From Vermamoeba vermiformis (taxonomy: Eukaryota), in contig JBEWZL010000030.1 in NCBI GenBank assembly GCA_045837725.1, forward strand, positions 62,001 to 126,000: a DNA stretch of 64,000 bases, in the 5' to 3' direction. Positions within the stretch are counted from its first letter, which is position 1, and every line of letters begins with the position of its first letter. This document shows positions 1-60,152 of the stretch, one piece after another. Position numbers and translations under genes: made by a program. The notes beneath the pieces are model-generated. The model saw only the letters and a list, made by a program, of their open reading frames with translations. It searched no databases and was not told where the DNA came from.

Positions 1-3000
1 GAATTTCAAGTCGAAATTTCCGGTCAAGAACACGGAGTTCAAGAAGAAGACCAAGCTGTAAATGTCATCGGTGTCGTACAAGGGTCTCAAGTGCGCATCA
101 ATCTCCCTGATCAAAGTGATCATCTCGTCAGCCAGGGCGTTGCGCTTGAGGTGATAAGGACTGCCCCAGAACTTGTCGCTGGCCTTGGTCTGTTGCGTCA
201 ACATCAGCATTTGCTTGTGCAATGTATTGACACGCTTCTGCAGCTCTTTTGACTTGTCATCTGTCATAGCAATACGTTCAATAGTCTAAGGGGACAATGT
301 TAGTGGAAGTGTCAACGAGGCACGTGTTCATCGTGTCAATGACTTACGGCTTTCTTGTAGGCCTGGACTTGCTCCAATGCACGAATGTGAGGGAACAACA
401 AAACTTCGAACTTGCGCAATGCTGCAACAAGTTTTTGAAGTCTGACTTCGCTGGTCTGATCGTTGTACCATTCAAAGTACAGCGTGTTCGTGGCCAAGAA
501 TTGACGTGTCAAGTCCAAGAAGGGCTTGAGCTCGGCTTTGGCAGGGAAGTCGGCCTTATCAACCTCGTCCATGTTTTGTTTCAAGGACGCAATCCACTTT
601 TGTTCGTCAGGCGAGCTGGTGAAAATGAACTTGGGCAAGTGCTTCGTGAACAAATCGTTGCCAGGCGCAATCTGAATAAGATTGAACAGCGCTTGAGTGA
701 CTGTCTCGTTGTTTTTGGTCAACTCGTGAATGGTGTTCGTCAAACAAGTCTCCCAGTGGTAGTACTTAGGGTCCACGAAGAAATCAAACGCCGTGCCCAA
801 GTTAAGCGTCGAGGCTATGACCGACTCCATAGGGTTCAACAGCACACCTATCGCATGTTAGCATGATATTAGGGTGTAATATAAATGTGATTAAGTACCA
901 TCAACATAGGCACCAATGTGCTCGTCACGACCCATGTAAGGGTTCAAGAATTGAATGTGCGTGCGATAATCGTTCACGGGTGTGTTGTCCCAAATCACGA
1001 GACGACGTTGAGGACCGAAAAATCCTCGTGTTCTCTTCAACAGATCCAAGCTGATCGTCTTGCTGATGGTTGTTTCGCCGGTCCACAAGAACACGACACG
1101 CGGATCCATCTTTGAAACACCGTCAGAATTACTTAGTAACGAATATAATAGGTTATCTTACCTTCTCTTTGAACTCAGTCAAATAGTTCACAGCAGGCAC
1201 TTCAGCGTTGTTTTTGAACTTGCACGAGTAATAAGTAGGGCACGTGGTCCATTCAATAGACTTCAATTCAGCCTTCTCAGTCAAGGTCTTGTTGGCAATG
1301 AATGCGTCGAAGTACTTGATGAGCTTGTTCATTGTGAAGGCTTGGGCGTCCACGAGACTAGAGAAGTCTTCCGGCAAGTCGAGTCCAATGTCATCGAACA
1401 GAATTGTGATGTGATTGCAGCCAATCTCTTCGTAGACCTGATGAAGCTTGCTAACCATGCACGACATTAGAAACAACCCTTATTGAATTCGTATTACAAC
1501 AAGGTTAACTTACGCGCAGAGTGCATCAAAATCTTTCACGTCACCGTGTTTAATGCCCCACGGATGAATGGCCATGTTGAAAGCAATGTTTTGTTGCTTA
1601 GAATAGGCGACTAAATCCTTAAACTCTGTTCGAATAGATTAGTACTACTGCCGCATAACATTCGATAATTAGACGGTACCTTTCACGAGTTCCTTCGGGA
1701 ACAAGTCACGCCACTTGACGCGATGATAAGGGTCCTCTTTCGGTGCCCAAATATAGTAATTGGCTTTCTTCTTGCTCATCCACGCGATCAGCCTCTTGCG
1801 GTTGGTCATGGTGTAAGGCTGACCGTAGTACCCTTCGACCACACCGACAGTTCTGACGGGATAAGTCTTTGACAAGTCAGTAGTGTCATTCCTAAAATGG
1901 ACAATTAGAGCACGGTCACGTGATGGTCGTTGATCGATCAATGAGTGACACTTACTTTGCGATTTGATCGAAGTCTATGAACTGGCTCAATTGTTCGCCA
2001 AACAGCTCGTGTTGCACTCTGTTCGCAAGCTTGGCTTGTCTGAGCTGCTTCGTGCGACTGACTTTAGCTTCTTTAGCCTTCTCTGCCTTCTCGGCTTTGC
2101 TGGCCTTAAGTTGCACGAGTGGGAATTGAGACTTGATGGGCACTTTCTCACTGGGATTGAACTCTTCGGATCCTTCAGCCTTGACGAACTTAGGTCTCAT
2201 TTTCACGTGCGGGTTGAAGTACGTGCCAATAGTCGACACAAATGTCTCGTCGTGCTCGCTTCGGTCGTCAGGCACAACACTCGTCTGAGCTTGAGTCTTT
2301 TGTGCTGGGCTAGGACTAGCTCCCTTTTTCTCGCCAGCTGAGGGAGAAGCACTCGGAGCCGGTGCAGGCTGTCTAAAGTCGCTGCCATGACGAGGCTGGA
2401 ACTCCTCTTTGAGTCTGATAATTTCATCCTGGAACCGTTTGTTTTCTTCCTCAATCAGATCTTGATCACTGATCACTTTACGACCAGCAAAATCGATCGT
2501 GATTTTGTACTTGTTCTCTTCGCGTTGTCTTCTGATCTCTTCTTGCTTTTTAATAGCAGCATCACGTTCTTCAGGCGACAACCACTTGGCGTTCATGTCG
2601 AAGTAATCGCTTTGATCGTCTAAGTAATCGCGCGTCAGCAACATTCTTATATGGCAACAACCCTTGCCAACGTACCGTAAATGATCGTTCTGCGCACTTT
2701 GTCTCTTTCGTACTCAAGCAGTTTGTTCCTGTGTTCTTCAGCCTTCTGCAGACCTTCGCGCTCCTTCATGCTCATCTTCTGCTCTGCTTGAGTGGCTGTT
2801 TTAGCGGCCTCAATCTCCTCTGCAAATAAAATATTAGTATATATTTATAGACCATTATAATGTCATTGTCAGTCTATTGATGAAGTGCCATATGTGTAGT
2901 GTTAATATTCAACTCACCCGGTGTAGCGTTTCTCGGAAGTACATAGTTGCCGCAGAAAAAGCACGGGCCAGGACCTTCTTGCTCACAAACAATCTTGCCG

Positions 3001-3815
3001 CACTTGAGGCAGTTGTTAATGAGCGGATGTTCGCGTGCTTGACACGTGCACGGAATTCTTTTGTATTCTTTTTTCGCGCCTTGAGCTTGTTTGTTTTTCT
3101 TCTTGACGACCATGATTTGCGGTCCTTTTTTCGAATAAGGATTGGCTACTACCGTGTAGTTCTGTTGTTTGTTCTTATTCTTACGACTAATAATATTAAA
3201 TCGTTATAATAATGCAAATAAAAATTCAGATTGAATAACGGATGCGCACCCTTTCTTTTTCTTTCCATCATCGTCGCTATCACTGTCCTCATCGCTGTCA
3301 TTATCGCCTTTTCTATAAGCTACAAATCCCTCCGGTGCCTCATCTTTAGGGGCAGGTGTTTGCTTTGCTGGCGATTGTTGTGGCTGTGGTGGGTCGTTGG
3401 ATGCAGGCACAACAAATCCAGCCTGTCTTCGTCGACTTAAGAACTCTGTATAGAATCTCCTGACTTGATCCGTGTCACCAAGAAAACCCTAAAATGAAAT
3501 ATACCGTTACTGTAACGCCTAAATGAATTTTACTTCATAAAAATAGCAGATTTGAGAAATCACGCAGAACAATATTTCCAACATAATAAATATTATGTAC
3601 ATAGACTATTTGTTGACTAACATAACATATTGCACGAGGAAAATATATTAATTGAATTTTTGTAAGCTTACTTTGAGAGTTGCGTCGAGCTCTTTGTCAG
3701 AGAGCTTTACCCACGAGTTAACGATGTCAGTGCTCTCATCGGGTGATATACCTAGCATAATCTGCACTTGGCCTTTACACCAAGTGTAAAAGTGGGTCTG
3801 TTGCGGATTGCTCAT
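1..3815 (-). CDS. ASC-1/TRIP4-like protein (zf-C2HC5) fused to a GH84 O-GlcNAcase-like domain; multi-exon, 3' end beyond the window
   Basis: ATG at 3815 (MSNPQQTHFYTWCK). C2HC5 finger CTCQAREHPLINNCLKCGKIVCEQEGPGPCFFCG and RTIIYDDQSDYF are TRIP4 hallmarks. Intron 1955-1892 joins in frame to GH84 motifs GVVEGYYG, YIWAPKEDPYHR, ILFDDI, CPTYY, LWTG, IWDNTPVNDY, LLNPM. Confidence 0.85.
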
Positions 3816-4239
3816 CTTCACGTTGACAAGAATAAAAATGATTCAACCAAAATCAGACAGATAATTTATTACCAACGATCAGCGAGCTGCAACACAAGCA
3901 CTGCTTGGCACTATTATAATAATGGTGTTATGTGAGGCTGCAACAGTTGCGTTATTATGAGCCAGGTTCGCTGTGTGGCTTCCATTAATCAATTCCCACG
4001 GGATTACACCTTGAATGGGAACAAGAAGCTCCAATGTATTTTTCCTCGACAACGGCAGCGATATTAAGACCCTACGTATGCTGGGAATAATTATTGGACG
4101 CGCAGAGGCTTCAGTTTAATTTTCCTCACAAATCTAGCCGTTGCAAGTTAATTCGATCTCAGCTCTCAAACTCTATCGAGGATCCTAGTGATAACACCAA
4201 CATATATTACATTGGTCAATAATACAAGGTACAGAGGCA

Positions 4240-7200
4240 TTACTTTTCTCCGTTTGTTTGTTGCAGCTGCTTGATCGTGTTTTGCGCATCTCGCAGTTGC
4301 TGCTCTAACTCTTCTTGCTTCTTCAATAACTGTTGAATAAGAGCTTGTTGTTGAGCTAATTTCTCTTCATATTCTCGTCGAATCTTGTCTTCGTGCGCGG
4401 CAGGGATGGGAGTGCTCGATGTCAATCCAGCATGACCACTCGGTGGAGGGACGTCTGAGATTGAGAATATTGATCGAGAGTTGGCAGTGGGCAGCTTGAC
4501 ATGCGAGGAAGCCTAAGCAAATATGTTAGAGAGGTGACCCACGAGTGAGATTCGTTAGCTAGATCCTGTTTCAGAAATTATGCTTACCTTGGGCAATGGC
4601 TTCATATTAACTCGCTTCTTCTTGCTGATGTCAACGAGGGGTCTTAGAGTATCCAAGTTACGAGCTTGCTTGATGAACGGATGCTACGCGAGCGTTGGTG
4701 GTTAGATCGAATCCGTTACACGTTCAAGATCAAGCACGAGACTTACCTTCAAGAGCTCAACAGCATCAGGACGCTTATCAGGTACCTTGGACATGCATTT
4801 CGATACAAAGTCGCGAATCTCTTGCGACACCTTGGTGTTCTTCAAGAACTGACGGCAAACGATGGATGCAGGCAAGACATTCTCGAGCAATTCAACGACA
4901 GTAATGCCTAACGACCATATGTCTGACTTATCCGAGCAACCCTTCTCGCCTACTTCTGGTGCACTCCATGCTGCTGCATCGCTATCTACAAGGCCAGTCA
5001 TCGTGTACAGCTGATCGCACAAGTTGTAGTCCGCTAAAGTGTTGTTAGTATGGAGAACAGCCTATATAATATGTACTTACTTAATTTAAGTTGACAGGTG
5101 TCTGTTAGTAGAATAGTGCTGGCTCGGAGGTGTTTATGAATCAGATGTCGACCGTGTAAGTAAGCCAAAGCTTTGAGGACCTGATCCAAAGGTTAGTATC
5201 GTCAGGCCATTGTAAAATTTATGTAACTTACCTCAGCACAGACAGTAGCAATATGAAGTTCAGTGAAGGGCTTTCCAGTGAGTTTCATCAGATCTTTCAA
5301 ATGCACACCGGAACAAATTTCTTGCAAGATCTAAAAATGAACGATTAGATCTAGGTTCGTATTAATATAGTATTATACGTACCCAAACATCACTATTGAC
5401 GGAGGAGGTGCCAAAGTACGAGAACAGGTTCTGATGTCGGCACTTGTTGATCGTGTCCATTGCTTGTTTCAAGCCCTGATATTTCTCGCGAGAATAAGCA
5501 CCTTGCAGGACTTGAACGGCCACAGAAGTCTCGGCACTGTCTCCTTTCTTATACACGGCCTTCCAGACCTCTCCGAAGTTGCTGAAATACAAGTTAGTCC
5601 ATCGGATCCATCAAGTGACACGTGTCATTATCAATGCAAGTACGTACGAATCTTCGAGCTTTTCTTCGAATTCGAGGGCATCGACATTGTCATCCCAGTT
5701 AAATGTGACTTGTTTCTGAATGATGTTGAAGCTCTCATTAGGCAACTGCTTCGTCTCATCGCGTGGTGGCAGCGTCGTGCAGAACATTTTCATCTTGGAC
5801 AAGTCACCAAATATGCTAAATACACGTTAGAACAAGTAAAATCAAGACACGAATCCTATATCACAACGTACCCCTTTTGCTGAACGGCTGATTTCTTGCG
5901 CTGATAGTCATTGACATTCGTTGTCATCGAGGCTAAAAGCATATTAGTTGCTGCGAAGGGATAAGCGGTAGGACTTACAGATTCCAGATACAGGGATCAG
6001 GTCGTTGAGTAGAGGTAGCTCAAAGTCGTCGGGACGAATCAATCGGCCGCCAAATATGTACATTGTGTCGTCCTGTCAAAGTGTCAGTTCGAGCGTGACA
6101 GCTGGCCAGATAGTATCGACTTACAATAATCGAGAGTGTGTGTGCGTGCACGGGGTCAAGAGGCACATCGAACCACGCGACTTGCCATTCACACGTCTCA
6201 GTGTTGAAGTAAAACACGTCTTGGAATGCAAGAGTGTTGATGCTAATGCCGCCAAACATGACGATTGTCTTGGTGCCCGGCAATAATGCCGCACTGGCCT
6301 CGGAACGAGCTACGACACGTGTCAGAAGAGTGGTTGGAAATTATTTTGCGAGAGGACTTACCAATGGGCACGAAGCCAACGGCAGTGATTTGTTGGGTCC
6401 AAGTGTTAGTCTCCGTGTCAAACACGAACATGTCATTCATGGCCTTGTGATCGATCGTCTTGCCGCCAAAGATGTAAATCTTCTTGTCCAGCACTACTGC
6501 CCAGTGACCGAATCTAGCTGGCGGTACTGCGCCATTGGGCTCAATCATCGTCCAAACATTGGTCGCTGTAAAGAATTTCAGTGAGTATAGTTAACAAAGA
6601 ACGGTTGTAAGATTGAGAGCTCACCGAGATCCAAGCAAAAGACGTCGTTGTAAGCATTTTGTTGCGTAATGCTCTTGAAGAAATATCCACCAATCACGTA
6701 CATCTTATTGCCAACGACGCTTGATGTGTGACTGACACGAATGGACGGAATATTGCCCGTAGTATTCAACTTTTGCCACGAGAGCGTTTCTAAGATGTTG
6801 TTAGATTACTAACTCCAGTAAAGAATGCCGTGTCATCTTACCAATGTCAACGGTGTACGTATCGTTCAAGAAAGGATTTTCCAAGTTTTGACCGCCAAAG
6901 AAGTAGATCTTCTTGCCGTACGCAGCGGCAGAATGACGCGACAAAACTGGCGGTTTGCAGCCACGTTGATTGGGAACTTTTTTCTCCCAGACACGTGTCT
7001 CCGTGTCAAAACTGTACAACTCGTTGAAATAGTTTGACTTGCGGTCGTTACCACCAAAAATGTAAATTTTCTTGCCAATAGCAACAGCCGTGTGATATTG
7101 ACGCGGTGACGGCGTGTTGGGCTGATTTTCAACGGGTTTCCAAGTACGTTCTTGAATAGCCTAATATGGATATTAGTGCGGAACAATAGATGAGTCCAAG

Positions 7201-10200
7201 GGCGTACCTTGCGAACAGTTGCAAAGCTTTCAAAGAAGTTCTGATGATCTTGCTTTTCAGCAAAAGCGGCAATAATTTCTTCAGTGCCAGTTTGAATAGA
7301 CGCGTAGTAACTTAGGGCTTGGACGTCCAGATCATCGGGCATCTTGGACATTTCCAAATTTGGTATTTTCTTGTTGACTAGAAGCAACATTAGTAAGGAC
7401 TTTAAACGGTTAAGGTACTCTTACCTTCTTGTTTGGTGAGTTTCTTAATCGTGAGTGCGATAGTGTTGAACAGGCCCAAGAACTGCAACTGTGAGCTGAG
7501 CGTCAGAGCACCAATGGTGATGCTGTGCGGCTTGACGAACATGACTGAGTCACTCCAGAAGATGACAGCTGCTTCAATGATCTCACGTGTTGACAACAAG
7601 TAGCACTTGGTCTCGCCACAGATCTTGCGGTCTTGAGTGATTTGCTGTCAAAGTGATTAGTTTGACACGTGTCAAAGTGTCATTGGTTGACTTACAGGTC
7701 CGTTGTAATCAGTGAGCAAGTTCTCAATTTCAACTGCTCGTGCCAACTGTTCTGCCTCTCTTTTAGCTTGATTAGCGTGATCAGCCATCATCGTCATTTT
7801 CTCCCACGCGATTTGAACGCTTTCATAATCGGGATGTGTTTTCTCCGTGTGTTTCTTGATTTCATTCAATAACAAGCCGTATTTAGTCAAGCGTTGAATC
7901 GGCTTAATCAACAACGAGTCGAAGTCCTCCATACGGAATTCGGCGGAGTTTTGCATTTCCTTTTATGGAAGGTTGGTTATTGGTGTTTGTATTTGAGGTG
8001 CTCGTCACTTACCTCTTCGAATTGAGCCCAGGCCTTGTTTTTCTTTCTCAATTTGTCGAGCAATTCGCTGGATTTGTTGTAGTTGTTCACGTACTCCACG
8101 TACATTGAGAAGTATTGGTACTGTGTCGGATTGTTAATTTGACACTGGCTATGTTGTGCGAGTACGAGGGACTTACGTATTTGAGGAAGACATCACCAAC
8201 TTTGAATGGCGGAGTGCAGGCCATCTTCTCCATCTCGTGCACAAATGTCTTGTGGAAGTTGAGAATGACCTCGGCATTGGCGATGAGCACTTTGATCTTG
8301 TCTTCGGGGATGATGGCACGAGTACGGAGCATTGGAACAGCGACCTGAACGACTTATTAGCATCGATTTCAGGTGGTGTATTGTGTCAGCAATACCCTCA
8401 AAAGAAGTTCTAATGACTCGACGTAAGTTCGTTCTGTGTGAAGTAACTCGCGGGTGACATTAGTGCGCAGACTGACGGGCTCAGCGGGCTTATTTTCAGC
8501 TGGTTTATCGGCCGGACAGACTTCCGTCTTGTTGCTCTCAGCCATGTTGTCCAGTGCTGTTCGAAGCCCCGTCGGTTCAGCGTGAATGGTCGCACGAGCA
8601 CTCGTGGTACCGTTAGCAGAGGGAATGTTGGCCTCAGTTAATGCAGCTGACGTGAACATGGTCGTCGATCTGTTGCTGACATTGTTGCTTCGAACTCGTG
8701 ACTTGTCGGACATTGTTGGTGATTGTGGGTTAGACGAGTTTGAATCGGAGTGTGCAGAGTTTGATTGCAGCTCAATGGACTTTTCGAGTCTGGTCTTCGC
8801 GTCCAAGACCAAATTGTTCTCGAACCACTCTTCGAAGGACTTGCTGACACGAGCCTTTGGATTTGATTCTTGGAATTTGAACAGTAATCGCACAAGATCG
8901 GCAAGTGCTGTCATTTTCTTCATGTGCACGAGGTTGGAAGGAATTGCTTGGTCGAGTGACTCGATTTCTCTCATGCGTGTCTCGACGATGTCTGTCACGA
9001 GTTGATAAACAATACGACACGTGATACCAATGTAATGACTTACCAACAGAGGGAACGCACGCTACGAATCGTTCCAAGTTGGTCTTGGCGTTGGACGATC
9101 CTTTCTTCAGCTCATCAAATCGCTTCGAGGTCGTGGGTGGCAACAACTTCCACGTCTCACGCAATCGATCAACAGCCTCGTCAGTGAGCGCAGCAAGAAT
9201 GGCCAGTGCGTTGAAGTGATTGAAGCGATCAAGAGACAACATGGCTACTTCAATGAACAAGCCGAGCATTTTCTTTCTGGTCTCGAGGTCTTTCTCAAGC
9301 ACAATCACCGTTGTGATCCAATCAGAGCGGAATTTGCTCATCATCTTGTATTTGAACATATGAGGCGCTCTTTGTTCGTTCAAATTCGAAATTGTCAAAA
9401 ATTCCCAGGGCTTCACGCGCATAAAGTTTTGCCAATCGAGTGCGTCGAAATGTTTCGCAATATCTTCGGGTGATGTGTCCAAAAATTTGCCTGTAATGCG
9501 CTTGTTAATAATAGGTCCCGGCTACATAAGGTGTATAGCATATTTGAGATTGGGTGATGAAGTATAGTTAAGTTCTACTTACCGAGATTCCACTCTGGAG
9601 TCGAAAGTGCCATCTCCGCTTGCGGTGTGCGGTGAAAAGCTTCTTGTTGCATGTCAAAAATAAACTTGTCAACGATGGTCTCTAACACGCTGAGGGCCTT
9701 AGAAGTCACTTGATGAATTAGCACCTTGAGCTCGGGTCGCTCATTGGCACTCTTCAAAAAATCTTTAATTTTGCGGATCATCTCGTTATCTTCTTTAAAA
9801 TCGTCCGGATAGGTCTGCAGCCACGATTTTATCAAATTTATGACGCTAAAAGATTTCAAAATGTCAGAGGAAATTTAGAATTGATGTTACGAGCTTTGCA
9901 AGTGAATTTACCGTAGTTGAATCCTCGTGCAGACATTTCTAGCCTCTAATTCGTTCATACTTCTCGGTGCTAATATATAAAATCTAATTTTTGATTAGAG
10001 AGGCAGCCTAATGCAATTTAAAATTGTCTTACCTCCTCAAAAGGCGTTCTAAAAATTCCTGTGGCGTTATAAAATATCTGTAGCATAATAATACTTCTTG
10101 GCTAACTCTAATATCTACAATAAAATATAAATAAGGAGAATACGGTTAATTAAATATTCTTACCGTAATCGTCACCAGCAGTGATGGATTCAATGAGTTT

Positions 10201-19367: not shown

Positions 19368-22003
19368 ATGGCTGACGCGGCACCACCCAAAATGCCTGGT
19401 ACCATTAATCCGCACATCTATTAATTAAAATTACTCACCTAATTGTAGGACCTCCCAAACAAAATGGAGTCAGCGAAAGAATCAAAACTATGCAAGTTGG
19501 TCAATTTGGAGCGAATTTGGCTGCAATGCTTCAAATGCAAAACCAAGTCACCGCATCCAAAGCTAAAATTCCTGAAGGAGCGGTTAAAATGCCTATGCCA
19601 CGAATGGTCGCAAAAGGAGAAAAAATCATTTCGTTTACTGTGGAGGCAAGCAAGGGTTCATCAGTAACTCTTAAATACTCGGATTCAACCACGGTACGTG
19701 TTATTATTTATTCGTTGCCCAGTATAACTGTAATTATTAGAAAACCGCTTCGACTCAATTAAATTGATTAAGTGATAATTATTGTGAACTAAATTGCAAT
19801 TCCATTTTTTACTTACACTTTTCCCAGGTAAACGATGTATTTAATGAGGCACAAACGCAATTATCACTCAAGAAGGATGCGGAACGTATTGGATTGTACA
19901 ACCCTAACACGGGTATATTTCTTAGAGGCGAACTGAGCCTTAAAATGCACCTGATCAAAGATGAGGTATGGATTCACGAGTTTTGTGAATTTTGAATTTA
20001 ATTGAACTCCTGTAGGACAAATTGGAGATTAAATCACGCAAAGACAAAGGTACTTTCGTCAAAGTGTTTCACCGCGGCAAGGATGAAATGGAGCTCGTCG
20101 AGATCTATCCTTCAACCACGACGATCGGCCTAATTCAATTATTGGGAAACAAAGACCCAGACACAGCCGATCAGTTTGGTTTATATTTATCCAATGGTAC
20201 TCGCCTTGAAAATGATTTAAAGCTGTCTTCTGTCATCAAAGGAGGCGTAAGTAAAGTCTCGAAATTATCATTCAATCGCTCATTTTATTGCTAAATATAG
20301 GCGACCGTTATTTTGGAATACCGACCTAGTAATATGCAAGTCGTAGCACCTACTCTCCCGCCTCCACCTCCTCTTGGAGCTATTCCATTGCCCTCAGCCA
20401 AATCTAATCCGAATCTGTTGCCGCCACCACCGCCAATGCCCAACATTCCTCCCCCTCCACAACTCGATTCCTCCGATGAAACTCCCGATACCTCTAGCGA
20501 AAAAGTAATTCCATCCGATATTTTCATGTTTTTCTTACGCTCACACAGGATCCTCAGAAGAAAAAACTTAAAATGTCAGCCAAGAACCAGAAAGACAAGA
20601 AGAAGGTCGGTAAGAAGGGCATTCCTGAAGAAAGCGAGGTCGATAAAGTCCCGCCTTTGCGATTCGACGTCGTGCAACAGTTGGTCGAGTACTTGGAAGC
20701 CAAAGGTCTCGAAGAAGTGGGCTTGTTCCGCGAGTCTGCGCCATTGACTGAAGTGAAAAAGCTTTATTCTCAATTTTTCAACGGTATGTACTAGTATTAC
20801 GCTGGTAAATACGCACCCGCTAACTTTCTATATGGCACAGATAAACTTGACATGTCACAAGTCTACGACCCTCACGTCGCTGCTGGCGCGTTGAAGCTGT
20901 ACTTCAGAGAGCAAACCGAAGCGTTGATTCCTCCTTCTACATGCCAAGAATACTCTGAGGCTGCGAGTACGTAACAAAAACGTGTTTGATTTGATTAGTG
21001 TACTAGAACTAACACGATGTAGAAGCGGGACAAGACAATGCAGCGCTGGTGACAATCATCAAAGAACAGTTCTTACCGAGACTGCCTCAGCCAAACAAAA
21101 ACATCTTACACGTTTTGCTTAATTTGTTGAGCAAGTTGGCCAAGCTCGAAGAGAAAAACAGAATGAATCCCAACGCAATTGCCATCTGCTTCGCGCCTAC
21201 TGTAATTTTTGACCGCAATGCCGCCACGGCAACGAGCATGCTGGAATTTGAAGCGTCTAAATGGACTGTACCTTTCATCGTGCGCCTTATCGAAAACTAC
21301 GAGGCGATTTATGGAGGACAACCTCTGCCTACAGGAGCCTCCTCACCGCTCAGAGGCAGCAGCAGTGGCACAGGTTCACCGATGCAATCTCGAAGAAACA
21401 GCTCACCGCCCATTCCAGGTGCCGCGACAGTACTACTTCCACCGCCTCCTGCCTTGGACCTAAGCTCAACTTTGCCGCCGCCACCAAAGCCAACAGTTCC
21501 CAGCTCACCGCGCAAACAGCCTCCAGAAGTATCTCCCCGTCGTAACGTGACATCAATGGAATTGCCCGCAGCGAACTCACCCAAGGGTCACTCGCCAAAG
21601 GGCGGCAAAAGACCAGTGTCCGTTGACATGACAGGAATTGCGAATACATTAGTGCGCGCTGTTAGCACGAACTCAATTGATCGCCCTACACGACCTCAGC
21701 CTCCACCTCCAGGTCTGCGTCAATCTACCTCGCAGACGTCAGCGGTGTTCGATCCCAAGGCCATCATCAACGCGTTAAACAACGGTACTCCCAAGGCTAA
21801 AATTGAGGCTGCTGTAACATTCATGGCATTGAAAGACGGTAGGAGCAGCAGTAATAATAGCTTATTGATACTCATATCTAATTTATCGTACAATAGACCA
21901 ACGATTCCAAACCTACGTGAGCAACTTGCCACCGAACTTTTTACTGGAACTTTTGATGAATGTGACTGCGACTCTGAGCAAGTGTACTGCTCCGAGCGAA
22001 TAG
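19368..22003 (+). CDS. RhoGAP with N-terminal tandem ubiquitin-like (talin F0/F1-like) domains and proline-rich regions
   Basis: EEVGLFRES (arginine finger), HVAAGALKLYFRE, NRMNPNAIAICFAPT. N-terminal GLYNPNTGIFL..DKLEIKSRK and QFGLYLSNGTRLE. Poly-Pro tracts. Confidence 0.85.
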
Positions 22004-22248
22004 ATTCGAACTTTTCCAATTTGTATTATTAGATAAAACTTGCGAACTTTTCAAATCACATTGGGGTGATCACGTGGCGCGGTTTTTAAATTAATTTTTG
22101 AAACTTGGCAAAAATTAGTATTTTTCTAACAGTAACAATGAGTCATCCACACGAGGTCTACGCTAACTTTGAAATAAGAATATGCAGCGATAACGATAGT
22201 ACAGCAATTAAGTCCACGTATGATATGTGTTTTTTTGACATGGTCAAA

Positions 22249-41027: not shown

Positions 41028-42931
41028 TTACATGAATTGGTTACCTCGCCAAGTACACAAGGTGCCGGTACGAAAGTGCAGTAGATTAGGCAAATGGGTC
41101 GTTAGTTCTTGTTCCGTGTAAAAAGCAGTCGTTTGGACCTTTGTAAGTTCTACGGTTTGCAGTGATGTTAACGCTGTGAAATGTTCGCCAGTAATTCTGC
41201 CAGTAACGATTAAGGCAGTTAAATTTGTCAAGCCCGACAAGCCCTTGATTTGTTCATCACGTTCTCCAATTAATACGATCTCCAAGTGCTCTAAAGTTGT
41301 CATCTTTGCGAGAATGGGCCACAGATCCGGTGCGTCATGACAATCCATGCGGAGGAATTTCAACGGCATATTTTCCAAGAATTTAAAGTCTGTGTCGTTC
41401 TTAATTGATATTTGCAGCTTGGTCAATTGTGTCAGTGCGTGCAGAGTGCTCACAGCTTGTTTTGTACATGAGGTCAACCGCAACTCTTTGAGCTCGACCA
41501 GCGGTGAAAAATCAACCAGATCCAGATCTGAATTCCAAAATATTATTTCCGCACTCGTTAATCGCGTCAAATGTTTGATGGACTCGTTCAACTTGGGACA
41601 AACTTTGGCAGCTGCCAATGACAACACCTGCAAACCAGAAAATCGTGTCAAATACTCCGAATTGGGCTGCACGTAGGTCAAAAGATCTAACTTCGTGAGG
41701 CTCTCGTGCGGAATATTTGACAAAAATTCTCCGTCGTTTCTTGCGTGCACTTTCAAGTCTTGCAACAGTGGCATGGATCGCAAAAAGTCAAACTGGTACT
41801 GTTCCCCTGTCACAGTTAGCGATACCAAATTAGTCAATTTTGCCAGCGGATCTGTGTTTGGTTCATGAACGGACCACAGTGTCAGTTGCGTCAGATTCGT
41901 GAATAAGTGGATGTGCTGCAAGTGTCCCTCTGAACTGCATTCCAAGGATTCCAATTGCGTTAACTTGTATATAGGAAACACTACGGGTCCTGGCTCCTCG
42001 AGATCGTTCCGCCATGCAAAGCGCTTGAGGTTCGAAAATTTGTCCACATCCGCTTCAGAAAACAACACTTGATTATTCATAAAATTGAGTTCCAAGCTCG
42101 TCAAATGTTCTGCGTGTATTTTTGATATTAAATTGACGTTGTCTGGGGCCTCGGCAGTTATTTTAATGCTTTCCAAATGATGCAGTTTTTCAAAAACGCT
42201 TGCCAACTCTTCAAACTTGAAATTGAGTCTGTAAGTCTCCAGTCCTCGCAATTTTTTGAAATTTTCCAGTAATTTAAATGGATAATTATCAAAATAAACG
42301 CCAGACATGCAACTCCAGAAATACTCCAGATTTGTCAAAGTTGAGAATTGTAACCAGTATTTGTCGTCTATTCTATTCTCGGGAGCTAGTTGAAATGCGG
42401 TTAAATTCGTCAATTGCGATATTTTGACGAACTTTTCGGGGTCAAGGTTTGGCTGCTTTTTAAATCTAAGGCTGATCGGTTGAGTGTACCGTGCTAACCT
42501 ATCCACTAGCGCATCCATCACCGCATCGCGCGGTATCCATATACAAAAGTCAGTATAATTGATAATCTTGAACCACGTTGTGTTAGCTAAGCGCATCTGC
42601 CGTTTTGAACGGTTGTCCAAATACGACCCTATCTCCTGATGAACTTCGCGCGGCAACGAATTAATATCATGTATCTGTAGGTGCGTTAAGCTAGAATTGC
42701 CTTGTAAAACCGCGGATCTTATGTATTACCTCCATATCTTCAGCGTGTCGGAACTGTGCACAAATAATATAATTATTTAATATTGATTTGATAATTAATA
42801 ATTTAATTGTTATTATCAAGTTGATCGTTCAAATTCTAAGCATATTATTAAGAGAATGCAGATTTATTCTTTACCGTTACCTTTTTGAAGGGTCTTTCTT
42901 CGTCGCTCACTTCTATGCCTTTTCTTTTCAT
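41028..42931 (-). CDS. F-box-like + leucine-rich repeat protein
   Basis: INSLPREVHQEIGSYLD followed by many LTNLTxLxL repeats in a 542-aa exon. Two short 5' exons start at ATG 42931 (MKRKGIE). Confidence 0.85.
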
Positions 42932-58071: not shown

Positions 58072-60152
58072 ATGGAGAAAAACGACTTCGAAAAAGAAAA
58101 AGAACAAGAACAACTATTTGACGACTTTGACGCTGAGCTACGCGTAGAAGAGCCTGCGGCAGAAGACGGTGACGGTAAGCGGAACGACAACAAGCCGAAC
58201 AACAAGCGAAACAAGAACGAAAAGAAAAACTCGAAAAGGTACGTTAAATATCACTAGTGCAGGAGCTTGGCGGTCGTTAAGAAAAATGTCATTCGGGGAG
58301 TTATCCCGGAAAAATTTTAATGGTCCAAATTTGCTGCTTCCCTTTTATTGAGTATCTACACCATAATAACAACACATTGGCGTTATTACTTTGAAACTTA
58401 CTCAACATGAACAGATCGACTGCTTTGGATTTGGATTTATTCCGTGAGGAGAAGGGAGGAAACCCTGAAGTTGTTAGACAATCGCAAAAGGCCAGATTTA
58501 AGGACCCCGAAGACGTCGACAAAATTATTGGCGTCGATAAGGAGTGGAGAGAAAGTACGTTAAGAAATACATCCACAAATATTTTATTAATTTTTTAAAA
58601 AATATTCTGCGTCCCTGAACAAAGCGAAAATTATGCCGTTAGCGCTATATCGTATTTATGCAACTAACTCCCGAATTATTATGGATTAAATTAGTGTTCT
58701 CATTAAATGAAAATATTTAACCGCATCCTCTAACTTTTATATTAATAGAGCGCTTCCAACTTGACCAAAAGAAAAAAGACCTCAATAAAATCCAAAAGGA
58801 ATACGCTCCTAAGAGAAAGGTAATGGTGACAAAGTTGCGATCGTGGATGCTGAGTATTTACTGAATCTTATTTATTTAGACTGGTGAGAAGGATGAAAAT
58901 ATTGAAAACCAAATGAAAGAAATCAACAAACAAATTGAAGAACTTGAAAAGGAAGAAAAGGAAGTCATGACCAGATTGCACGGTATGGTCAACAAGATCG
59001 GCAACATCGTTCACTCGAGCGTCCCAATCTCGCAAGACGAGGTACTTATATTAATACCACTTAATTATTCTTATTTAACTGACACCGCTCGCTACATCCA
59101 GGCCAACAACGGAATTTACAAAGTTGTGGGTACTGAGCGCCCCTACGAGGACTGGTTCAAGCACCACCACGAATTGTTGTACATGATTGACGGCTACGAC
59201 GCTGAAGCTGGCTCGAGAACCGCTGGTCACCGTGGCTACTACTTGAAGGGTATTGCCGTGCACTTGAACCAAGCCTTGATCAACTACGGCTTGCAATTCT
59301 TGGCCAAGCGAAAGTACACCGCCGTTCAAACCCCGTTCTTTATGAAACGAGACGTTATGGACAAGGTTGCTCAATTGGAACAATACGACGAAGAGCTCTA
59401 CAAGGTCACTGGCAACAACGACGACGGTGACATGTATTTGATTGCTACTTCGGAACAACCTCTCTGCGCCCTCAACTTGGACGGTGTCATCGAAGGCAAG
59501 GACTTGCCTTTGCGCTACGGTGGTTACTCGACTTGCTTCAGAAAGGAAGCTGGTGCTTACGGCAAGGACGCTTGGGGTATCTTCCGTGTTCATCAATTCG
59601 AGAAGATTGAACAATTCTGCATCACCAACCCCGACAAGTCGTGGGAGGAACACGAAGAGATGATCAAGACTGCTTGCGAATTCTACGAGTCGGTAAGTCA
59701 CGAGTCACCATTGACATGCAAGTGCTCGAGTACTAACGCGTTGCATTCAGTTCGGTTTCTGCTTCCGAGTCGTGAACATCGTCTCGGGTGAGTTGAACAA
59801 CGCTGCTGCCAAGAAGTACGATCTTGAAGCCTTCTTCCCCACTTTGCAAGTCTACCGTGAACTTGTCTCGGCCTCGAACTGCACTGACTATCAATCGCGC
59901 CGATTGGGCATTGTCACTGGTACCGGCAAGGACCGCAAGTTTGTGCACATGCTCAACGCCACTCTGTGCGCCACCACTCGTACCATGTGCTGCATCTTGG
60001 AGAACTACCAAACTGAGAAGGGTATCAACGTACCCACCGTCTTGCAGCCCTACTTGGCTCCCTTCCTCGAAGACCCCACTTTCATTCCCTTCGTCAAGGC
60101 TGCTCCCAAGCGAACTGAAGCTGCCAAGCAAAAGCCCGCTGCTAAGAAATAA
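58072..60152 (+). CDS. SARS1: Cytosolic seryl-tRNA synthetase
   Basis: [74 protein letters not shown]. Confidence 0.97.

Follow-up and report, generated by a model that had tools for sequence, protein, structure and literature searches.

The 64,000-nt stretch of Vermamoeba vermiformis DNA analyzed here (contig JBEWZL010000030.1, positions 62,001-126,000; in its full length, the window) carries on its minus strand a gene in which in-frame splicing connects a TRIP4-type half with a domain of glycoside hydrolase family 84 (GH84) that looks intact. An earlier note on this DNA had read the two parts as one gene, and the gene model, the Pfam matches and the spliced contigs of close relatives uphold that reading. 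Its view of the product as a TRIP4-glycosidase alone was incomplete: the gene runs off the window, and an AlkB-type, ALKBH8-like Fe(II)/2-oxoglutarate dioxygenase very probably follows just outside it, as judged from a metagenome contig of a relative (L001) and four orthologs, all of which end in such a domain. We propose, with a probability of roughly 0.55, that this fusion of a TRIP4 docking module, GH84 and AlkB would dock on a helicase of the ASCC3 type and deliver its enzymes there, the GH84 of this lineage being active.

Results

A single gene with a stop-containing intron

The gene model was assembled from the minus-strand sequence of positions 4500-1 and a list of stop-to-stop open reading frames (ORFs), in which the gene appears as short ORFs separated by GT...AG stretches. 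Removal of ten introns, all of the GT..AG type, 51-183 nt long and most with a CTAAY-like branch site, yields a single frame of 1023 codons that starts at ATG 3815. It reaches window position 1 without a stop, and the gene extends past the window edge. The window holds 11 exons of this one protein-coding gene of an amoebozoan-type eukaryote, and at least two further exons follow outside (Table 1).

The decisive point of the model is the junction between the two halves. The TRIP4-like ORF (2713-1952, 253 codons) ends GCA AAG TAA, and its apparent stop, the TAA at 1954-1952, lies inside a splice donor (GTAAGT from 1955), as the earlier note had claimed. The 64-nt intron that the note proposed is likewise found in the sequence, with a CTAAT branch site at 1909-1905 and a TTTTAG acceptor ending at 1892 (AG 1893-1892); its removal joins GCA AA to G AAT GAC in frame, so that the protein reads AK followed by ND. 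No ATG precedes the first GH84 motif, since the ORF in the GH84 frame (1974-1669) has its first Met after GVVEGYYG. Room for a promoter is also missing, with about 100 nt from the TAA to the first GH84 strand compared with about 425 nt in the spacer between the upstream gene, which ends near 4240, and ATG 3815.

The earlier note had suggested looking for spliced transcripts over this junction. Among 19 listed public runs with near-identical sequence, four were compared over window positions 1-4300. Two of them, X1 and X3, consist of contigs with different organism labels from two studies and are mostly 95-99% like the window; the other two, X17 and X19, are raw RNA reads from a more distant relative, mostly 90-95% alike. 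Contigs of both X1 and X3 contain the joint 1890/1955, with 64 nt skipped, CT..AC ends and a shorter side of 211 nt (X1) or 78 nt (X3). Record 3 of X1 (726 nt) starts at 2347, crosses exons 5, 6 and 7 and enters exon 8. Joints with CT..AC ends mark eight of the ten introns in X1, where loose ends matching the next exon mark the remaining two; in X3 seven introns are seen as joints. The depth of the bin 1873-2016 is exactly 80/144 of that of the spliced contig in both X1 (4.87/8.77) and X3 (1.39/2.5), and thus no contig retains the 64-nt intron; correspondingly, no intron-retaining contig was found in X1 or X3, where contigs drop rare variants. The X1 and X3 contigs are taken to be cDNA, since they are free of introns and none of the four runs has any depth in the intergenic bins 3889-4176. 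Removal of the stop-containing intron is confirmed in the mRNA of two close relatives. A misassembly was considered as well and rejected: the X1 and X3 contigs bridge TRIP4 and GH84, and L001 independently bridges GH84 and AlkB.

At the exon edges the relatives show codon-level differences, with the frame kept throughout, at 285-351 and 3691. In X17 and X19 three letters are added at the joint 285/351, in X3 one letter is added at the joint 285/349, and X1 has a 3-nt deletion at 3691.

The TRIP4 part

TRIP4 assists the helicase that frees stalled ribosomes. Pfam was run exon by exon on the gene. Exon 3 contains the zinc finger zf-C2HC5 (PF06221, E 1.6e-14, above the curated cut-off), whose Cys/His pattern aligns with canonical TRIP4, and the start of exon 5 matches TRIP4_3rd (PF23134, E 4.1e-18, 65.9 bits with a cut-off of 27.7). 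The TRI4_N domain gave no Pfam match on exon 1 alone, which would hold just a part of it, the rest falling in exon 2, and none on the full-length Rhizamoeba protein P0078; the helices of this part align with the TRI4_N region of canonical TRIP4. The N-terminal half of the orthologs matches the human TRIP4 chain 8alz at 5e-24 and 5e-21.

No exon in the window has a Pfam match to the ASCH domain. Examination of the alignment revealed where the canonical sequence ends: the RVQHELF of exon 5 corresponds to R-I/V-Q-D-x-E-L, the motif found just before ASCH in canonical TRIP4, and the amoebal proteins retain canonical TRIP4 up to this motif (R-V/I-Q-D/H-x-E-L/F in their form) and then pass into GH84. 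GH84 begins where ASCH begins in the canonical proteins P0031, P0044, P0052 and P0067. The suggestion that GH84 occupies the place of the ASCH domain of animal TRIP4 is in agreement with this alignment, the fusion point being the start of ASCH; by sequence comparison, ASCH is replaced cleanly by GH84.

The GH84 domain

The strongest exon for the NAGidase profile (PF07555) is exon 6 (E 1.3e-21, from profile position 2), and exons 6, 8, 9 and 10 together cover profile positions 2-292. Exon 6 aligns with positions 146-204 of NagJ and 62-114 of human OGA, and exon 9 with positions 243-301 of human OGA, the WDN and NDY motifs being kept; the PDB matches of both exons are all GH84. In exon 8, FDDI is aligned with the same four residues of the O-GlcNAcase chain 9qep, a match that is weak alone (E 0.89) and was used for local alignment beside the Pfam match. 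The catalytic Asp-Asp pair (LFDDI) is encoded by GAT GAC and is intact, as the earlier note had it. It belongs to a complete set of motifs (GVVEGYYG, APKED, FDDI, CPTYY, WDN..NDY, and LNP), which we take, from the GH84 literature, to provide the sugar-contact and catalytic residues of the family: Gly and Tyr of strand 1, the Lys of APKDD, the Asp-Asp pair, the Tyr of CPTxY, Trp-Asp-Asn, Asn-Asp-Tyr, and Asn-Pro.

Comparison of the window with L001 gave 79-88% identity in exons and 46-53% in introns. The dN/dS ratio is 0.053 over the 328 codons of exons 9-11 and 0.015 over the 70 codons of exon 9 (catalytic), in which 68 of 70 residues are identical. Judged from these sequences, the complete GH84 active-site motif set is under strong purifying selection in the window lineage.

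The affinity of the domain within GH84 is mixed: exon 6 scores nearer to the NagJ type and exon 9 nearer to human OGA, neither group being clear. In the Protein Atlas, the clusters nearest to exon 10 are bacterial GH84 proteins with post-catalytic domains (scores 0.92-0.94, low recognition), which is a lead only and not evidence of bacterial origin. Neither the window exons nor L001 nor any of the four orthologs has a Pfam match to a HAT-like (pseudo-acetyltransferase) C-terminal domain.

A probable AlkB domain beyond the window edge

Metagenome contig L001 (3949 nt), found with exon 10 at 85% identity, carries the orthologous exons from the tail of exon 8 to exon 11. Past the equivalent of window position 1 it continues with a linker and an AlkB domain whose N-terminal and C-terminal parts are separated by a 66-nt intron (1637-1702); the stop follows at 2178-2180. 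L001 runs 260 codons further than the window, and thus the full protein here is probably about 1283 residues long. Its AlkB part matches PF13532 at 2e-18, with HID (HxD) and the second His aligned to ALKBH8. The closest solved relative is human ALKBH8 (3thp, 3.3e-18), which is also closest for P0012, P0027 and P0004 (2.6e-24 in the last). The HxD...H metal triad and its flanking motifs (NxYxPGQGI) are invariant in the four fused orthologs and are also present in P0004. With AlkB at the C-terminus, the functional reading shifts towards repair or demodification of nucleic acids.

The intron of L001 splits the AlkB domain and is in phase 2, with a GTAAGT donor that contains an in-frame TAA. Because stop-containing phase-2 introns recur in the gene, ORF-based callers will cut it into several apparent genes.

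The same fusion in other amoebae

A HMMER search with exon 5 (220 aa) against 1.84 billion cluster representatives gave 77 matches at E up to 1e-3. We scanned 21 of these with Pfam, namely all matches of at least 900 aa, most of those of at least 300 aa and two near-identical fragments; the other 56 are mostly short fragments. All four matches of at least 900 aa (P0008, P0012, P0027, and P0051) combine zf-C2HC5, TRIP4_3rd, NAGidase and 2OG-FeII_Oxy_2 of the AlkB type. P0004 has zf-C2HC5, TRIP4_3rd and 2OG-FeII_Oxy_2 without GH84; the canonical architecture with ASCH is found in four scanned matches, and no C-terminal domain is recognised in 12. Among non-fragment matches, P0004 is the closest to the TRIP4 part of the window.

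By their source names, three of the four fused proteins are Trinity transcriptome ORFs from Echinamoeba exundans (P0008), Arcella intermedia (P0012) and Rhizamoeba saxonica (P0051), all Tubulinea (Amoebozoa); P0027 is one uninterrupted ORF on a contig of 23,307 nt. The fusion, which the earlier note did not know from elsewhere, is therefore present in four other cluster representatives, and the comparison with related amoebae and of domain architectures that the note advised has found it in three Tubulinea transcriptomes and in the ORF on that contig. Alignment with the spliced product of the window shows conservation on both sides of the TRIP4/GH84 junction. P0012 and P0027 each match solved chains of TRIP4 (8alz), a GH84 O-GlcNAcase and ALKBH8 in one polypeptide.

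A structural model of the Rhizamoeba orthologue, built from four sequences, has a mean predicted local distance difference test score of 53.6, only the GH84 and AlkB cores being moderately confident. It matches the catalytic-plus-stalk structures of TtOGA, human OGA and OgOGA with a template modeling score of about 0.5 on the target, and it was used only to confirm the fold class, GH84 plus stalk. Word-indexed protein searches returned nothing for exons 5 and 6, and for a profile of the four fused proteins only one of its own members and three fungal TRIP4s; the index evidently misses the family. The taxonomic spread of the fusion given here is a lower bound.

Features of the gene and its surroundings

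The features of the gene are collected in Table 1 together with coding pieces elsewhere in the window, where the signalling-rich gene content typical of amoebae is recognisable. None of the eight longest ORF pieces scanned in the window is an ASCC, OGT or AlkB gene, and Rfam gave no match on the window.

Table 1. The TRIP4-GH84 gene and neighbouring coding pieces, in window coordinates
Feature	Position	Strand	Description
Exon 1	3815-3672	minus	From ATG 3815; N-terminal helices, aligned with the TRI4_N region of canonical TRIP4
Intron	3671-3489 (183 nt)	minus	Absent from X1 and X3 contigs
Exon 2	3488-3250	minus	Remaining N-terminal region and acidic/basic low-complexity linker
Exon 3	3186-2918	minus	C2HC5 zinc finger, about 3053-2928; joint 3186/3250 in X1, X3 and X19
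Exon 4	2819-2676	minus	Helical linker from the zinc finger to the third domain; joint 2819/2918 in X17/X19 raw reads, matching loose ends in X1
Exon 5	2619-1956	minus	TRIP4 third domain (2617-2468), fast-evolving linker, pre-ASCH motif RVQHELF
Intron	1955-1892 (64 nt, phase 2)	minus	GTAAGT...CTAAT...TTTTAG; holds the apparent stop TAA 1954-1952
GH84 catalytic domain	1891-681 (exons 6-10)	minus	Pfam NAGidase, exon-wise structure alignments, motif table
Exons 6-10, GH84 part	1891-1680, 1625-1514, 1450-1162, 1109-899, 847-681	minus	Asp-Asp codons GAT GAC at 1395-1390
Post-catalytic helical (stalk-like) region	680-1	minus	Rest of exon 10 (680-348; exon 10 as a whole, 847-348), intron 347-286, exon 11 (285-1); aligned with the helical region of the orthologs
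Neighbour coding pieces	4240-5061, 8775-9521, 21013-22029, 41031-42725, 58880-59788		Kinase, RasGEF, RhoGAP, leucine-rich repeat, class II aminoacyl-tRNA synthetase core
Protein kinase domain	4705-5061	minus	Co-directional with the TRIP4-GH84 gene

Discussion

A possible mechanism

In the model that we prefer, the retained TRIP4 part, consisting of the zinc finger, the third domain and a lasso-like linker up to the pre-ASCH motif, would dock on the C-terminal cassette of a helicase of the ASCC3/Slh1 type, as it does in the human complex. According to the study of that complex, the zinc finger of human TRIP4 is by itself enough for stable binding to the C-terminal cassette of ASCC3, and the lasso peptide and ASCH then lie at the nucleic-acid (DNA) exit and stimulate the helicase (PMC10076317). 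If docking follows the human complex, the enzyme domains would sit where ASCH normally sits, at the nucleic-acid exit. There AlkB would act on single-stranded RNA (or DNA) that the helicase passes to it, taking off alkyl lesions or modifications by oxidation, and the GH84 domain of the window lineage would act as an active beta-N-acetylglucosaminidase on O-GlcNAc-modified proteins nearby, such as those of the ribosome, collision sensors or subunits of the complex. In lineages without the Asp pair, GH84 could serve only as a scaffold, a dimeriser or a binder of GlcNAc.

The joining of TRIP4 and AlkB would be a covalent version of the partnership of ASCC3 and ALKBH3. In the same study, ALKBH3 binds ASCC3 only in competition with TRIP4, knockout of TRIP4 leaves the sensitivity to alkylation unchanged, and ASCC3 is proposed to clear ribosomes collided on alkylated mRNA, letting ALKBH3 repair it (PMC10076317).

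Evidence against the proposal and rival explanations

Several observations weigh against the mechanism proposed above. At the junction, the X1 and X3 runs are labelled only as guessed RNA, and X17 and X19, which confirm six other introns, have zero depth over 1873-2304 and thus do not cover it. (Both flanks of 1873-2304 are covered in X17 and X19, the zero depth within being obtained at a likeness threshold of 90%; the stretch that connects the TRIP4 third domain to GH84 changes far more rapidly in evolution than do the domains.) The AlkB domain lies outside the window, its presence resting on a relative of 85% protein identity and on distant orthologs. In similarity it ranks with ALKBH8, then ALKBH6, ALKBH7 and an N6-methyladenine (6mA) demethylase, not with ALKBH2/3, and by this sequence relationship it may act on a tRNA modification or a protein instead of on alkylation damage. 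The four fused orthologs all lack the GH84 Asp-Asp pair, each differently (Ser-Gly, Asn-Glu, Ala-Asp, and Asp-Ala), and several of them lack other substrate-contact motifs as well; the Asn-Glu state of Arcella was borne out when the protein was aligned independently with Thermobaculum OGA (5diy). Finally, in P0004, on a metagenome contig of 1971 nt, the zinc finger, the third domain and the pre-ASCH motif are joined straight to AlkB; this variant may be ancestral, may have lost GH84 or may come from a transcript with skipped exons.

The differing replacements of the Asp pair suggest repeated decay of GH84 catalysis with the domain itself retained. With the pair lost in four orthologs, the conserved role of the module cannot lie in taking O-GlcNAc off proteins at stalled ribosomes; the decay in four relatives, together with the GH84-less P0004, makes TRIP4-N plus AlkB the conserved core. 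As far as these sequences tell, GH84 catalysis would be lineage-specific at best and is not the conserved point of the fusion.

Two of the alternatives concern the transcript. A pair of adjacent genes, namely a TRIP4-like gene ending with the TAA at 1952 and a separate GH84 gene, with the in-frame intron due to chance or to rare read-through, might be read from the 253-codon ORF that this TAA closes, from the fact that a TAA inside a phase-2 GTAAG donor is common (L001 1637-1702 is a second case), and from the lack of junction coverage in the raw reads. It is largely refuted, and we regard it as extremely improbable, in view of the spliced contigs in two runs from two studies with no unspliced one beside them, the missing in-frame Met and the short gap before the first GH84 strand, and the presence of the fusion in four other representatives, in one as an uninterrupted ORF, with the junction sequence conserved. 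Under regulated retention of the 64-nt intron, the gene would make, beside the fusion, substantial amounts of a 487-residue TRIP4-only isoform that stops at TAA 1952. With the stop directly inside the donor, any retention would give such a clean product, and yeast-type Rqt4 and many of the 77 exon-5 matches are likewise without a recognisable C-terminal domain. This possibility is nevertheless very unlikely: depth arithmetic leaves no intron-containing contig in X1 or X3, within the limit that contigs drop rare variants; no pile-up of molecule ends was reported in the run comparison; and the third Rhizamoeba isoform (P0079) is a C-terminal fragment, not a TRIP4-only form.

The other two accept the fusion and differ in its function. 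GH84 might be a non-enzymatic spacer, dimerisation unit or GlcNAc-binding reader that places AlkB, the sole catalytic cargo; GH84 stalks dimerise in OGA. The loss of Asp-Asp in all four fused orthologs, and P0004 with its invariant AlkB motifs and no GH84, fit this explanation, which we hold to be unlikely for the window gene, where the catalytic and sugar-binding motifs are all intact and exon 9 is constrained to a degree not expected of a mere spacer. Alternatively, the protein might act away from stalled ribosomes, in the nucleus or on tRNA, for example as a wobble-uridine hydroxylase of the ALKBH8 type or as a demethylase of DNA/RNA, the TRIP4 part providing helicase-assisted access to the substrate or co-activation of transcription. 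The position of AlkB nearest to ALKBH8 is consistent with this, as are the transcription roles of TRIP4 and the roles of ASCC3 in DNA repair and mRNA dealkylation (PMC11214414, PMC10076317). In a preprint of 2026, overexpression of the ASCH domain of TRIP4 in E. coli is reported to lower tRNA N4-acetylcytidine (ac4C), and hence a tRNA-directed eraser in the place of ASCH would be a plausible like-for-like replacement. We consider this somewhat doubtful as the better account; it differs from our preferred explanation only in the place of action, and the two are compatible.

Docking on an ASCC3-type helicase with delivery of the enzymes thus remains the explanation that we prefer. A more specific form of it, in which the protein is the RQT4 subunit, AlkB reverses the base modification that caused the stall and an active O-GlcNAcase resets ribosomal or collision-sensing proteins after ASCC3 has extracted the mRNA or tRNA, is improbable as a whole. 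If it were true, the TRIP4-type and AlkB-type functions of ASCC3, which are exclusive in humans, would ancestrally or repeatedly have been one pathway. Nothing supports a still bolder variant, with a single glycosylated, oxidisable modification of nucleic acids as the successive substrate of GH84 and AlkB.

Significance

Natural gene fusions are among the strongest hints, from sequence alone, of proteins that work together. A TRIP4 docking module welded to AlkB argues that ribosome rescue and dealkylation can be one machine, against the view of the field that these are separate uses, and the fusion offers a system in which to ask whether ribosome-stalling lesions are repaired in place. It also ties a domain of the O-GlcNAcase type directly and physically to the machinery of ribosome quality control, so that three processes usually studied apart are joined. 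The intact GH84 site of the window lineage and the decayed sites of four relatives form a natural comparison of catalytic and scaffold roles. For the ASCC/RQT, AlkB and O-GlcNAc fields the protein is of real value as a Rosetta-stone fusion.

A full-text literature search found no description of TRIP4 joined to GH84 or AlkB, with the limit that supplementary files may hold tables of domain architectures; the architecture sits unremarked in public transcriptome protein sets. The only paper found on the pairing of O-GlcNAcase and ribosome quality control reports no more than that OGT and OGA associate with ribosomes (PMC11567021).

Comparison with known systems

With human TRIP4/ASC-1 and yeast Rqt4, the subunits of ASCC/RQT, the fusion protein has in common the C2HC5 finger, the third domain, the N-terminal helices, the lasso-like linker and the pre-ASCH motif. 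Unlike them it lacks ASCH, has GH84 with a stalk and, past the window, very probably AlkB, and reaches roughly double their length, with 1023 residues seen and about 1283 to be expected from L001. Its GH84 part shares a near-full NAGidase profile, the Asp-Asp pair and the sugar-contact motifs with the GH84 O-GlcNAcases human OGA, TtOGA, OgOGA, CpNagJ and BtGH84. It differs from animal OGA in having no HAT-like C-terminal domain, the C-terminus in L001 and the orthologs being PF13532 instead, and from the bacterial GH84 enzymes in its context, as it is accompanied by no carbohydrate-binding module or signal peptide and sits in the middle of a TRIP4 protein.

The human pair of ASCC3 and ALKBH3 resembles the proposed amoebal arrangement in that an AlkB dioxygenase stands beside the ASCC3 helicase; in the human proteins this link is non-covalent and in competition with TRIP4 (PMC10076317, PMC11214414). 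The amoebal dioxygenase, in contrast, is attached covalently to the TRIP4 docking module, and belongs by similarity to the ALKBH8/6/7-like branch rather than to ALKBH3. The closest solved relative of its AlkB part is ALKBH8, the animal tRNA wobble-uridine hydroxylase/methyltransferase (3thp, 3.3e-18 to 2.6e-24), with which it shares the HxD...H site and NxYxPGQGI. ALKBH8 combines its dioxygenase with an RRM and a methyltransferase domain; the amoebal protein has neither, and the partners of its dioxygenase are TRIP4-N and GH84.

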